This document shows, one piece after another, positions 15,405 through 19,165 of a stretch of DNA of 24,000 nucleotides. The notes under the pieces are model-generated. The model did not search any database. It had not been told where the DNA came from and saw only the letters and a list, made by a program, of their open reading frames with translations. The stretch covers positions 23,047 to 47,046 of the forward strand of contig JARRRD010000027.1 of assembly GCA_037381085.1 (NCBI GenBank), in the 5' to 3' direction. A program made the position numbers and the translations under genes. Positions within the stretch are counted from its first letter, which is position 1. Each line of letters opens with the position of its first letter. The DNA is from Candidatus Sulfobium sp. GTDB taxonomy: Bacteria; Nitrospirota; Thermodesulfovibrionia; Thermodesulfovibrionales; UBA6898.

Positions 15405-15701
15405 TCAGCAACAATCGCTTTTCTTGTTCTCGCCGCTGCAGCCGCAGGAAGGCTCGCCGCCGCTTATCATGCCGTTGATGAGGGCGGCGGCACAGCCCAC
15501 GCCCTTGTCCACCTTGAGCGCTCCGAAGGCACAATTGCCGGCGCAGGCCCCGCATTCCATGCACCGGTCCTTGTCAACAATGACCGCCTTCCTGTCTTCC
15601 ATGGTAAAGACTCCGTGCGGACATACCTCGACGCACATTCCACAGCCGACGCACCGGTCGGGAAAAAATTCAAGACTTGCCGTATTCGAGAGATACTTCA
15701 T
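15405..15701 (-). CDS. hgcB: Mercury-methylation ferredoxin HgcB (2x[4Fe-4S], C-terminal Cys pair)
   Basis: Two CxxCxxCxxxC motifs (CVGCGMCVEVC and CMECGACAGNC). It has the HgcB-diagnostic C(M/I)ECGA motif, an internal Cys after the second cluster, and a terminal ...SDCC. ATG 15701 overlaps the hgcA stop (ATGA) and has GGAGG 7 nt upstream. The track start 15713 is an alternative. Confidence 0.87.
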   Translation of the reverse strand: MKYLSNTASLEFFPDRCVGCGMCVEVCPHGVFTMEDRKAVIVDKDRCMECGACAGNCAFGALKVDKGVGCAAALINGMISGGEPSCGCSGENKKSDCC

Positions 15702-16852
15702 ATGAACCTCCATTCACCGAGCTTATAGACAAGCAGGAGAATCAGGGAAACCACCGAACCCGATATATAGAGAGGGATGGTTATCTTCAATTCCTTCCTG
15801 ACACCGGACATCCCGGTAAAGGTGGTCGAACCGGTGAACTGAAGAGCGACATATGAACTCGCCAAAGGGAAAAACAGGTACGTGAAAAAGAGAAGGACCG
15901 AATTAACCCGGCCGGCCATTGGAATAAAGTTCATACAGAGAAAAACGGCAAGCACTCCTGTTATCCACCCCTTGACCGCAAAAGACCTGAAAGGGATAAA
16001 TGGGAGAAGCACCGGCGTGACCAGGGCGCCGGCCAATATCGCTGTCAGACCGAGGAGGAGAAACGGCAGACCCCCGGAAAAGGCATCCCTGAAAAAAATA
16101 CCCGTCGGCTGAAGGCCGAATATGGCCAGCATGATAAGGGCATAAGCCGGATAGTATTTCTTCATTGCAGGGTTGATTTCCATCGGGGTCAGGACAAGGC
16201 GGTCGACAAACGAAAACTTCACCCTTCTCATCTCCAATGTTGCCTCATACCCCGCTGCTATGTAAGCGCCGACATCTTCGGCCCGCACCGGCCCGTAACA
16301 TACTTTGAACCCAGAGACTTTCTTCACCCCGGGTGCGCTGATGCCCGGGGCCCCGAGCTGAGGGACAATGATCTTCCTGTGGTCAACGATCCTGTCCAGT
16401 TTTGCGAAAGAAATACGGCGCACCAGTTCCTCTGTTCCAAACGTGCCTTTACCCGCTGCGCACCACACGTTGATGCCTTTGGTGTCAAGGACGAGGACCC
16501 AGGCGCTTAGCCCCTTCAGTGCCTTCCTGAGGGCGTCGAAACTGAGTTTATAATTGGCGCTCACGAAGACATCAGTATTCCTGTCAGGCGTGCCGACGGC
16601 GTAGAGGCCGGGAGCAACGGAATAGTCGTTTCTGAATGAGCTGGTCCTGCACTTTAGGTGTTCCCAATGATCGGACGCCGTAAGATCGGTGGATATCACG
16701 GGGATAACGCCTGCGTCGGTCATGAGAGTTCCGGTTACCCAGGCCGGCCATTCCTCTTCCCGGGCATGCGACTGCTGCGCACTCTGCACCGGCCCGCAGC
16801 AGGCCGGTTCTCTTTCCTGAGCGCCCACTTTTATAAACTTAAGTTCAGCCAT
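15698..16852 (-). CDS. hgcA: Mercury-methylation corrinoid protein HgcA (corrinoid-binding domain plus C-terminal membrane domain)
   Basis: The diagnostic cap-helix motif GINVWCAAGKGTFGT is present (NVWCAAGK is encoded at 16448-16471). Flanking conserved blocks are PGLYAVG, ANYKLSFDALR and VLDTKG. A multi-helix C-terminal TM domain follows. GGAGGTG Shine-Dalgarno before ATG 16852. Confidence 0.93.
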   Translation of the reverse strand: MAELKFIKVGAQEREPACCGPVQSAQQSHAREEEWPAWVTGTLMTDAGVIPVISTDLTASDHWEHLKCRTSSFRNDYSVAPGLYAVGTPDRNTDVFVSANYKLSFDALRKALKGLSAWVLVLDTKGINVWCAAGKGTFGTEELVRRISFAKLDRIVDHRKIIVPQLGAPGISAPGVKKVSGFKVCYGPVRAEDVGAYIAAGYEATLEMRRVKFSFVDRLVLTPMEINPAMKKYYPAYALIMLAIFGLQPTGIFFRDAFSGGLPFLLLGLTAILAGALVTPVLLPFIPFRSFAVKGWITGVLAVFLCMNFIPMAGRVNSVLLFFTYLFFPLASSYVALQFTGSTTFTGMSGVRKELKITIPLYISGSVVSLILLLVYKLGEWRFI

Positions 16853-16973
16853 CCTGTCTCACCTCCGTTATCTTCCCTGTAAAGCATAGAGGCAGTTCAC
16901 TTCCCGTCACTGCCCGATGTCGTCATTGCTTCTTGCATAAGACCTCCAGGGGGATAAATTCTTCGGCAATATC

Positions 16974-18053
16974 TCATAATGGTTCCGTTTTCTTCACCCT
17001 GCAGTATTCGACGGTGAAATACCTCTTCTGGAAGTAGAGAGCCACATTCACCAGTCCGATGAGGACGGGCACTTCGACAAGCGGACCGATGACAGCGGCG
17101 AAGGCCGCTCCGGAATTTATGCCGAAAACGGCGACCGCCACCGCTATTGCAAGCTCGAAGTTGTTGCTGGCGGCAGTGAAGGAAATCGTGGCCGTCTTCG
17201 GGTAATCGGCCCCGATCTTCCTGCCCAGATAAAAAGATACGAGGAACATGACAACAAAATAGATAAGAAGAGGGATTGCCACGCGGACCACGTCGAGCGG
17301 AAGACTGACAATGTAGTTGCCCTTCAGCGAAAACATCACGACGATGGTAAAAAGAAGAAAAATCAGTGTAACAGGGCTTATCTTCGGGATAAATACCTTC
17401 TCATACCATTCACGACCCTTGATTTTGAGCATGCTGAAACGGGTGATTATGCCAGCAAAGAAGGGAATGCCCAGGTAGATAAAAACGCTCTTTGCAATCT
17501 GGCCGATCGTGACGTCTACAATCTCTCCCTTGAGCCCGAACCATGCCGGCAGGACCGTTATAAAGACATATGCATACACGGAAAAGAAGAGGACCTGGAA
17601 TATGGAATTGAAGGCAACAAGTCCGGCCGCATATTCGGGGTCGCCGCATGCAAGTTCATTCCAGACAATGACCATTGCGATACACCGCGCAAGACCGATC
17701 ATAATGAGGCCCACCATATATTCGGGATAGTTATGAAGAAAGATGATCGCCAGGAAAAACATGAGCACCGGGCCGATGACCCAGTTTTGAACCAGTGACA
17801 GGCCGAGCACCTTCTTATTTCTGAAAACATCTCCGAGTTCCTCGTACCTCACCTTCGCCAGAGGAGGGTACATCATAAGGATAAGGCCGACGGCTATCGG
17901 GATGTTTGTGGTCCCCACCTGGAATCTGTTGATAAATTCCTCGGTCCCGGGAATGAAATACCCCAGACCTACACCGAAGGCCATCGCGGCGAATATCCAG
18001 AGGGTGAGATACCTGTCGATAAAGGAGAGCCTCCTCGATGCCCCCTGTTTCAT
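16974..18053 (-). CDS. acr3: Arsenite efflux permease, ACR3 family
   Basis: [36 protein letters not shown] and [11 protein letters not shown] are hallmark ACR3 blocks. About 10 TM helices. The start overlaps the arsC stop (ATGA). Confidence 0.93.
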
Positions 18054-18481
18054 GACGAATTCCTTCCGGCTCTCAGGTCTTCTGTTAAACTACGGACCTT
18101 TTCCTCTATTTCGTCCCTCGCCCTCCTGAACTCCCTCATAATTTCCTCTTCACTGCCGATGGTCCCCACGGGGTCCTTGATCGGCCAGTGGATGCGCTTT
18201 ATATCGGGAGGCGTCACGGGACAGGACTGCTCGGCATTGCCGCATAGCGTAACTATTGTATCCATCTCCTGCAGGAGCTTTTCGTCTATTTCATTTGATC
18301 TCTGCGCCGATATATCGATCCCCTTCTCCTTCATTACGCTGACAGCCCTCGGGTGGACGCCCGCCGCCATCAGACCGGCACTGTATGGTTCCATGAGCCC
18401 CTTCCCCAGTTCGCGCGCGAAACCCTCGGCCATCTGTGAACGGCAAGAGTTGCCCGTGCAGAGAAACATTACCTTAAGCAC
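18050..18481 (-). CDS. arsC: Arsenate reductase, LMW-PTPase / thioredoxin-coupled type
   Basis: [15 protein letters not shown] is the P-loop CX5[12 protein letters not shown] is the Cys82/Cys89-equivalent pair of the Trx-coupled ArsC clade. GTG start at 18481 with GGGAGG 6 nt upstream, 3 nt after the arsR stop. Confidence 0.9.
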
Positions 18482-18484
18482 CGT

Positions 18485-18862
18485 TTACCTCCCGCAGCAT
18501 CTTTTATTGGCGGGCATACCGACGACCTTCCCCGTAGCTTCCTTGCCTTCCATAAAAGCCCTGAGCCTTTTCCTGTCCGCCGCAACGGCTTCCTCCGGTA
18601 CCCGTTCCATTACAGATAGAACCAGCATACGTCTGAACAGGTCGGAGTCATCCAGGCGGTAATGGGTCCATCTGCCCTGTCTCCTGTCCCTGAGCAGACC
18701 GGCCCCCTTGAGCGCACTCAGATGGAATGATACCTTGGGCTGGATAATGTCGAGAGCAGCCGTGATATCGCAGACGCAGAGTTCGCCCAGTTCCAGAAGT
18801 TTCAATATTCTTAACCGTGTTTCATCGGACAGGGCCTTGAATATGTTCAGCAGTTCCTGCAT
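18485..18862 (-). CDS. arsR: ArsR/SmtB-family metalloregulator with an ELCVCD site and a C-terminal CC pair (125 aa)
   Basis: I prefer ATG 18862 (GGAGGGG Shine-Dalgarno) to the track start 18994. LSDETRLRILKLLELGELCVCDI...QPKVSFHLSALKGAGLL..R.GRW.YY is a winged-helix ArsR with the type-1 As(III) CVC site. A 50-aa C-terminal extension ends ...NKRCCGR. Confidence 0.88.
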   Translation of the reverse strand: MQELLNIFKALSDETRLRILKLLELGELCVCDITAALDIIQPKVSFHLSALKGAGLLRDRRQGRWTHYRLDDSDLFRRMLVLSVMERVPEEAVAADRKRLRAFMEGKEATGKVVGMPANKRCCGR

Positions 18863-18863
18863 G

Positions 18864-19109
18864 TTACACCCCTCCACAGAGGAAAGCAGCAGGGATATTA
18901 TCAATAAACATTTTTTTATGCATATGAAAATCCTTAGCGCACCCTTGCGAAAAATAGCGCCGGTAAAGAGATCCGGCGAAGATAATAACCGCAAGCAGGA
19001 GAGATATCGTTACCATGCTGCATATAAAGAATGGAGTGGCATCAGCAATCCCGGTCCCCCTGGTCAGGTGGATCAAATCGTATACGACATATAAGGCGAT
19101 CTCTTTCAT
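18864..19109 (-). CDS. Candidate 81-aa single-pass membrane protein with three Cys, possibly the first cistron of the ars-hgc operon
   Basis: ATG 19109 is preceded by GAGAGGAG (10-nt spacing) and lies just downstream of the predicted -10. One TM helix (FFICSMVTISLLLAVIIFAGSLY). The stop TAA is 1 nt before the arsR ATG. No family recognised. An in-frame N-terminal extension of arsR competes for the same DNA. Confidence 0.4.
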   Translation of the reverse strand: MKEIALYVVYDLIHLTRGTGIADATPFFICSMVTISLLLAVIIFAGSLYRRYFSQGCAKDFHMHKKMFIDNIPAAFLCGGV

Positions 19110-19136
19110 TCCAACAGTGCTCCTCTCATTGATAAT

Positions 19137-19165
19137 ATATAAACATAAATTGATATCATTGTCAA
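19137..19165 (-). promoter_or_regulatory. Near-consensus sigma70 promoter driving the minus-strand ars-hgc array, with an 8-bp palindrome in the spacer
   Basis: On the minus strand: TTGACA (19165-19160), a 17-nt spacer, then TTATAT (19142-19137), or TATATT with an 18-nt spacer. The spacer contains TGATATCA (19151-19158). TCATTG recurs at 19126-19131 and 19156-19161. The region is locally AT-rich. Confidence 0.55.

Follow-up and report, generated by a model that had tools for sequence, protein, structure and literature searches.

In Pseudodesulfovibrio mercurii ND132, the mercury-methylation genes hgcAB are co-transcribed with arsR2, whose arsenic-responsive product controls them (Gionfriddo, AEM 2023; bioRxiv 10.1101/2022.10.17.512643). 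The same preprint raises an arsenic-related native role for HgcAB, describes ars genes co-located with hgcAB in metagenome-assembled genomes (MAGs), those of the Nitrospira group included, and reports ArsR2 homologues only from the Desulfovibrionaceae. The genes acr3, arsC, arsM and arsR have been recorded beside hgcAB in MAGs by McDaniel 2020 (PMC7438021, Fig. 6), ars genes flanking hgcAB appear also in Zhang 2023 (PMC10349881) and Peterson 2025 (PMC11984097, Fig. 4c), and an upstream arsR is reported to correlate with lower hgcA transcription in situ (Peterson 2025, PMC11984097). Herein, we describe a 24,000-nucleotide (nt) stretch of DNA from a MAG of the uncultured Candidatus Sulfobium sp. 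(Nitrospirota; contig JARRRD010000027.1, positions 23,047 to 47,046), hereafter the window, in which hgcAB lie directly behind arsenic-resistance genes. In the reading that we favour with some reserve, hgcAB make up the distal portion of an ars operon in reduced form, which would be repressed by ArsR and induced by arsenite. A preliminary description of this DNA had put forward the arsenic-hgcAB idea as new, although it was already in print (PMC7438021, PMC10349881, PMC11984097, bioRxiv 10.1101/2022.10.17.512643); its mention of a regulator resembling ArsR upstream of hgcAB in ND132 is borne out by the preprint (bioRxiv 10.1101/2022.10.17.512643).

Five genes follow one another on the minus strand, namely arsR, an arsC of probable thioredoxin type, acr3 and, after a 121-nt gap, hgcA and hgcB, and the same-strand array to which they belong spans 13.7-19.2 kb of the window. 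The features of the cluster, from its head, are as follows.

19137..19165, minus strand: sigma-70-type promoter, TTGACA (19165-19160), 17-nt spacer, TTATAT (19142-19137)
19139..19154, no strand assigned: operator-like inverted repeat, ATCAAT-TTAT-GTTTAT, overlapping the promoter spacer and -10
18864..19109, minus strand: arsP relic, an 81-codon open reading frame (ORF) between promoter and arsR
18485..18862, minus strand: arsR, ArsR/SmtB repressor of 125 amino acids (aa); NF033788 98 bits vs cut-off 55
18050..18481, minus strand: arsC, putative thioredoxin-coupled arsenate reductase of the low-molecular-weight protein tyrosine phosphatase (LMW-PTP) type, GTG start, 143 aa; PF01451 88.7 bits
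16974..18053, minus strand: acr3, arsenite efflux permease, 359 aa; TIGR00832 469 bits vs 282.8
16853..16973, minus strand: acr3-hgcA spacer, 121 nt, holding the ribosome-binding site GGAGGTGA
15698..16852, minus strand: hgcA, corrinoid protein, 384 aa; NF040863 395.7 bits vs cut-off 275
15405..15701, minus strand: hgcB, 2x[4Fe-4S] ferredoxin, 98 aa; NF040864 123.4 bits vs 99

Gene content, order, common strand and coordinates were the same in the preliminary description and stood up to curated models and direct reading. All four junctions also read as it had given them: TAA-acg-GTG with a 3-nt gap at arsR/arsC, an ATGA overlap at arsC/acr3, the 121-nt gap, and again ATGA where the hgcB start codon overlaps the hgcA stop. 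Contigs about 99.5% identical to the window are present in JGI, Logan and NCBI assemblies; the DNA contigs derive from JGI 3300031653 and SRR9709000. Compared contigs and loci are labelled with L-numbers (L001, L084 and so on); L001 is near-identical to the window and Pfam-annotated.

By model, motif and domain layout, the window HgcA is a mercury-methylation corrinoid protein, and Hg(II) methylation is predicted for it. It passes the equivalog model NF040863 and falls below the cut-off of NF043039, the model for HgcAB-like fusion paralogues (184.6 vs 285), so by score it is not the non-methylating paralogue whose possibility had been raised at the outset. The cap helix NVWCAAGKG occupies residues 128-136 and is invariant in 21 relatives, residues 76-199 align with the gamma subunits of the corrinoid iron-sulfur protein (PDB 2h9a, 4c1n) and with PF03599, and the C-terminal half appears hydrophobic on inspection of the translation. 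The protein is identical to NCBI MEJ2683790.1, which is named 'mercury methylation corrinoid protein HgcA [Candidatus Sulfobium sp.]'. HgcB carries CVGCGMCVEVC, CMECGACAGNC and a C-terminal CC, and the motifs first quoted for the pair (NVWCAAGK(G), CMECGA and the terminal CC) are all present. The N-terminus of HgcA (residues 1-20, window 16790-16852) begins with a conserved MxELKFI and also carries an ACCG motif; both precede the corrinoid domain, and Cys18 is nearly invariant in the 21 relatives.

ArsC falls marginally under the cut-off of TIGR02691 (173.8 bits, cut-off 174.3) and has all its catalytic residues, that is, the C8-X5-R14 loop, Asp103, and Cys80 and Cys87 as the Cys82/Cys89-equivalent pair. 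In Acr3 the motifs ARCIAMV and PLVEVP are visible in the translation. ArsR has the motif ELCVCD (Cys29, Cys31) in helix 3 and a C-terminal CC (Cys122-Cys123); Cys29 and Cys31 are the equivalents of R773 Cys32 and Cys34, which are reported to be enough for an arsenite response (bioRxiv 10.1101/2022.10.17.512643).

The promoter lies 275 nt upstream of arsR. A consensus promoter scan passed over the TTGACA/TTATAT pair for want of an A at position 2 of the -10, and the sites that the scan did call promoter-like were no commoner than in shuffled sequence (5 vs 4.2), so the credibility of the promoter rests on its conservation in relatives. TTGACA-N17-TTATAT heads the clusters of L084, L087, L088 and L090, near-copies occur in L086 (TTGACT) and L097, and a spacing of N16/17 is kept across the six. 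The upstream promoter noticed in the preliminary description is thus present and phylogenetically conserved at the heads of related clusters.

The inverted repeat that overlaps this promoter is probably an ArsR binding site, as judged from its sequence and placement. Its consensus, ATAAAC-N4-GTTTAT, is perfect in L088 and L090 and has one mismatch in L087, L086, L078, L104 and L105. In 1.69 Mb of related loci we counted 16 copies with at most one mismatch. Of these, seven head ars clusters of Nitrospirota, and not one lies upstream of hgcA; the copy in L078 heads an ars operon that lies 5 kb away from hgcA. Two further matches in the window were set aside. One before arsR (18904-18919, 1 mismatch) matches better than the copy at the promoter, and was discounted as independent evidence because the same sequence stands inside the intact arsP of L087 and L097, where it codes His-Lys-Lys-x-Phe-Ile. 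The other, at the 5' end of hgcA (16833-16848, 2 mismatches), overlies the conserved ELKFI codons and probably arises by chance from the coding sequence; the palindrome GAACTTAAGTT, a weak mimic of the repeat, is made up of the ELKF codons.

The 81-codon ORF between promoter and arsR matches the N-terminus of the 312-aa ArsP of L087 (49% identity over 77 aa, E = 6e-19, BLASTP) and is therefore taken as an arsP relic; the L087 protein, an ArsP-type permease (PF03773 273 bits), heads its cluster. The window has lost the remainder of arsP as well as the small thioredoxin gene that relatives carry, and arsP fragments are also present in L084 and L085. The fuller layout in relatives runs arsP, small thioredoxin, arsR, arsC, acr3 and sometimes arsD-arsA, followed by thioredoxin, a 53-aa Cys-rich protein, hgcA, hgcB and a DsbD/CcdA-like membrane protein. 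Judged by gene content, the window operon goes back to a larger ancestral cluster that has been trimmed, and what had been called a complete ars operon is instead a reduced derivative with an arsP relic in its leader.

The closest relatives of the window were missed by pattern scans and were found by searching contigs that encode similar proteins. In each of the seven distinct relatives so recovered, with HgcA identities of 65-81%, an ars cluster on the same strand has hgcAB at its 3' end, and the linkage persists despite differing flanks and ars gene content. In a neighbour-joining tree of HgcA, the window and these seven form one subclade in which the linkage is 8/8. Examples of the gene orders are:

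L084 and L085: arsR-arsC-acr3, then hgcAB
L086: trx3-arsR-arsC-acr3, then hgcAB-fmdE-tauE
L088: arsR-acr3-trx-phosphoesterase, then hgcAB-dsbD; by the gene calls, the gene before hgcA runs to 6000 and hgcA from 6001
L089: arsP-trx3-arsC-acr3-arsD-arsA-trx-s53, then hgcAB-dsbD

The distance from the last gene of the ars cluster to hgcA in L088 and L115 ranges from 0 nt (gene calls) to 12 nt (homology-match edges), and in relatives dsbD begins 4 nt after hgcAB.

The regulation that we infer would proceed as follows. Transcription would start at the conserved promoter 19165-19137, where an ArsR dimer would bind the inverted repeat over the promoter spacer and -10 and repress it. Arsenite, taken up directly or formed from arsenate by ArsC, would free ArsR from the DNA through the ELCVCD pair. 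The transcript would then run through the arsP relic, arsR, arsC and acr3 and continue over the 121-nt spacer into hgcA-hgcB, possibly also into the fmdE-like and tauE genes behind them, and the outcome would be arsenite-inducible synthesis of HgcAB. Binding of the repeat by ArsR, the response to arsenite and the read-through are all inferred from sequence, as would be any biochemical role of HgcAB in arsenic handling, which is considered below.

A scan gave no terminator-like site in the acr3-hgcA spacer, and its RNA fold is no better than those of shuffles (z = -0.84), in line with the impression in the preliminary description that the gap has no convincing terminator; a 7-bp hairpin, GGCAGU...ACUGCC, was rejected as a terminator, the CUAUGCUUU that follows it not being a U-tract. 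A riboswitch or other known RNA in the spacer or leader was rejected by an Rfam scan of 13000-20000 (E up to 1), in which the lone match was a sub-threshold chance match inside hgcA. The spacer contains no operator-like repeat, and a conserved internal promoter before hgcA was rejected after a scan of 11 relatives found none in a conserved position. With neither a terminator nor a conserved promoter or operator in the spacer, the transcript would be expected to continue into hgcAB. Control by ArsR through read-through is suggested as the most economical reading, in that the operator-like repeat is confined to cluster heads and hgcA is preceded by neither a conserved promoter nor a conserved operator.

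Several observations weigh against it. The third R773-site cysteine is missing from the window ArsR, and the window copy of the repeat is degenerate (2/12 mismatches). The 121-nt spacer is far longer than the other junctions of the array (-4 to 3 nt), and in several relatives, too, no other spacer in the cluster is as long as the one before hgcA (240, 139, 130 and 253 nt), so there is room for a start site specific to hgcA. The window spacer also contains the weak promoter-like site GTGACG-N16-TATGCT (8/12 matches), whose -10 ends 31 nt before the hgcA ATG. Moreover, the Nitrospirota hgcAB loci outside the subclade are patchy in this respect, with ars genes upstream of hgcAB in L100, L101, L104, L105 and L115 and downstream in L004, L006, L097 and L114; most have no ars genes nearby, which implies that the link is not required for hgcAB function.

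The spacer features speak for a second possibility, that hgcAB are a separate transcription unit. In that case a weak constitutive promoter in the spacer or inside acr3 would drive hgcAB independently of ArsR, and the adjacency would mean no more than that genes for metals and metalloids cluster. For a junction within an operon the spacer is long, hgcA expression has long been held to be constitutive (PMC11984097), and other metal genes (CDF transporter, YHS protein, ChrA) are in the neighbourhood. However, GTGACG-N16-TATGCT, which is present as the preliminary description had noted, is weak and is not conserved in L084 or L086, whose spacers differ from that of the window in sequence and length save for the acr3 end and the ribosome-binding site. 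Several relatives, with 0-12 nt before hgcA, have no room for a promoter at all, hgcAB are internal to ars clusters at many loci, and the spacer offers no terminator to end the upstream transcript. A separate unit is an alternative that we hold to be rather unlikely, and read-through from the ars promoter remains the reading that we prefer.

The position of hgcAB within ars clusters was quantified in a survey of 166 non-redundant hgcA loci other than that of the window, drawn from species-representative genomes and metagenomes among the matches listed; ars neighbours were screened by phmmer with the proteins of the window and its relatives as queries. The figures describe a sample, not a census, and are uncorrected for kinship among loci. 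At 42 of the 166 loci (25%) there is a structural ars gene no more than 3 kb from hgcAB, which leaves 124 with none; among the loci with full flanks on both sides the count is 25 of 81 (31%). Same-strand ars-hgcAB clusters occur at 41 sampled loci in at least eight gene orders, which differ among Bacteroidales, Bacillota, Spirochaetota and others. In many of them hgcAB are internal to the ars cluster, as in arsC-hgcA-hgcB-acr3 (Bacteroidales-type), arsR-hgcAB-acr3-arsC (Bacillota) and trx...hgcAB-dsbD (Nitrospirota), with gaps mostly of 50 nt or less. The density of acr3 per 100 kb of flank is 17 within 500 nt of hgcAB vs 0.3-0.9 at 3-6 kb, a 20- to 50-fold difference. The adjacency, which on first description might have proved sporadic and unconserved among relatives, is found in 8/8 members of the subclade and recurs in other phyla.

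Such embedding could also mean that HgcAB work in arsenic or metalloid handling, for example by corrinoid methyl transfer to As(III) or another thiophilic metalloid, and that operon membership reflects their native role. The tight association with ars genes across phyla in several independent architectures is in keeping with this, as are the conserved synteny in the subclade and the lack of an arsM in the window. An ArsM-like methyltransferase domain was seen neither among the scanned ORFs of the window nor among the Pfam-annotated genes of L001, and on this point the preliminary description was right. In ND132, an hgcAB deletion mutant is reported to be more sensitive to As(V) than the wild type (bioRxiv 10.1101/2022.10.17.512643). 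On the other hand, 124 of the 166 sampled hgcAB loci have no ars neighbours, and co-regulation is possible without a common substrate. ArsP is a methylarsenite permease, and the decay of arsP in the lineage of the window would be unexpected if HgcAB made methylarsenite. We consider it improbable that HgcAB work in this way, and no less improbable that, in the subclade and in the other lineages with hgcAB interleaved among ars genes, they are arsenic-resistance members, whether as corrinoid-dependent donors of a methyl group to As(III) or a similar thiophilic metalloid, or by lowering the toxicity of arsenite otherwise.

A neutral inherited accident, in which one ancestral insertion of hgcAB beside an ars operon was kept by descent with no regulatory or functional meaning, fits the fact that within Nitrospirota the linkage is universal in one subclade only and patchy elsewhere, but it is very improbable given that the linkage outlasts extensive remodelling of ars content and of both flanks, that different gene orders arose in Bacteroidales, Bacillota, Spirochaetota and others, and that acr3 density drops steeply with distance from hgcAB. 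The loci compared, uncorrected for kinship, point towards more independent ars-hgcAB junctions than chance would give.

Other genes recur in the clusters of the relatives. A 53-aa CxC...CxC protein is encoded directly upstream of hgcA in L087 (5703-5864), L089 (5712-5873) and L091 (5786-5947); its sole family match is a weak BFD-like [2Fe-2S] one (E = 0.0016, below cut-off), and behind its stop codon stands a short hairpin, GTCCGC-N6-GCGGAC, which is conserved. In the same three loci, a periplasmic-type thioredoxin gene precedes the 53-aa gene and a DsbD/CcdA-like gene follows hgcB by 4 nt, which places hgcAB between trx and dsbD; in L097 and L113 these two stand next to each other. The 53-aa gene, the adjoining trx, the dsbD-like gene and the GTCCGC hairpin are all missing from the window. 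A calcineurin-like metallophosphoesterase (PF12850) recurs in Nitrospirota arsR-acr3-hgcAB clusters at nine loci (L088, 5284-6000; L090, L004, L095, L097, L100, L101, L104 and L105), and to our knowledge it is not a standard ars gene.

The genes that bound the cluster in the window are:

19302..20366, plus strand: mobB-mobA fusion gene, divergent, the upstream boundary of the cluster, in the same position in L084 and L085
14605..15213, minus strand: fmdE-like gene, 202 aa, C-terminal Cys-rich ribbon; PF02663 100.7 bits; 191 nt after hgcB
13774..14532, minus strand: TauE/SafE-family anion permease gene, 252 aa; PF01925 170.5 bits; 72 nt after the fmdE-like gene

The fmdE-like gene is possibly in the same transcript as hgcAB. 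The fmdE-like and tauE pair is found behind hgcAB also in L086 (7522-8962) and L058 (6215-7592), and in L053 and L127 it lies close to arsR-acr3 and hgcAB, on the opposite strand; in L088 and L090, FmdE is encoded near the cluster without TauE. After the tauE stop codon there is a GC-rich nested palindrome (13672-13726, minus strand), GTCATTCC...GCCTGCCTGCCGGCAGGCAGGC...GGAATGAC, with no U-tract, which may serve as a terminator of factor-dependent or unusual type, or else be a repeat element marking the 3' end of the unit.

The third gene downstream of hgcB, a TrmO-like gene (13082-13653, minus strand; PF01980 in L001), is truncated. L001 and L003 have 125 nt at about 13310 that are missing from the window, comprising the last 34 TrmO codons, the stop codon and a T-rich tail, and as a result the window ORF continues for 268 codons into the antisense of a convergent DUF3047 gene. 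The difference may reflect a deletion at strain level or an artefact of assembly. A second indel between these near-identical contigs is at about 11058, where L001 has some 222 nt extra with a 76-codon ORF. TrmO-like genes also stand behind hgcAB in L084, L085 and L089.

Farther out, metal-related neighbours were assigned at 7215-11140 and 22993-24000 by transfer from the Pfam-annotated contig L001. They comprise a CDF cation-efflux protein, a YHS-domain protein, a haem-binding cofactor protein and a HAMP/HisKA sensor kinase, together with a chromate-transporter (ChrA) gene within 22993-24000 that runs past the window end. A B12-binding radical SAM enzyme (PF02310 + PF04055) is encoded at 3791-5095 on the minus strand, about 10 kb from hgcA, probably by coincidence. 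The flanks are ordinary chromosomal genes (mobB-mobA, PMT glycosyltransferase, PAP2, yajQ and cdaA). Recent horizontal acquisition of the block was rejected on these housekeeping flanks and on a GC content that is flat at 0.51-0.55 across the window, and nothing in the sequence points to a mobile element at the locus.

The role and regulation of HgcAB bear on the prediction of methylmercury production. If hgcAB are indeed the distal part of an ArsR-controlled operon, arsenic would raise the mercury-methylation capacity of sulfate-reducing Nitrospirota in paddy soils and sediments, in which the two elements are found together; if HgcAB had a role in arsenic handling, their native function would be revealed and mercury methylation would be a side reaction. 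Given a Sulfobium culture or metatranscriptome, the locus would be useful as a test case. It is a clean new example of a published association and as such unsurprising to a specialist. Term searches in the text, figures aside, of the McDaniel, Peterson and Zhang papers found no Sulfobium-type cluster, subclade-wide conservation, arsP relic, or conserved head promoter and repeat; what is added here is the linkage across the whole HgcA subclade, the arsP relic, the putative operator confined to cluster heads and the association quantified in a 166-locus sample.

Canonical arsR-(arsB/acr3)-arsC operons with a thioredoxin-coupled ArsC are those of Staphylococcus aureus pI258 and the Bacillus subtilis skin element. 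Like them, the window has an ArsR repressor, an LMW-PTP-type ArsC with the cysteines for a three-cysteine relay and an arsenite permease, the genes closely packed behind a single promoter that overlaps an inverted repeat; unlike them, it has the order arsR-arsC-acr3, an arsP fragment in the leader, and corrinoid and ferredoxin genes appended at the 3' end. The regions described by McDaniel, Peterson and Zhang, which are descriptive examples, share with it arsenite permease and arsenate reductase genes adjoining hgcAB, often with an arsR-like gene. As in the arsR2-hgcA-hgcB array of ND132, an ArsR/SmtB-family gene is upstream of hgcAB on the same strand. However, arsR2 abuts hgcA with no other ars gene co-located, whereas in the window arsC and acr3 of a bona fide ars operon are placed between arsR and hgcA, and the four-cysteine site reported for ArsR2 (Cys47/49/86/88) contrasts with the R773-type ELCVCD and C-terminal CC of the window ArsR. 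Furthermore, the products of arsR genes abutting hgcA in other phyla score 25-63 bits against the window ArsR, and the ArsRs of Nitrospirota ars clusters mostly 126-267 bits. Set apart by its cysteine pattern and gene position, the window ArsR is, on this sequence evidence, not an orthologue of ArsR2, and the locus would resemble the ND132 case in its proposed working and not in its regulator subfamily.

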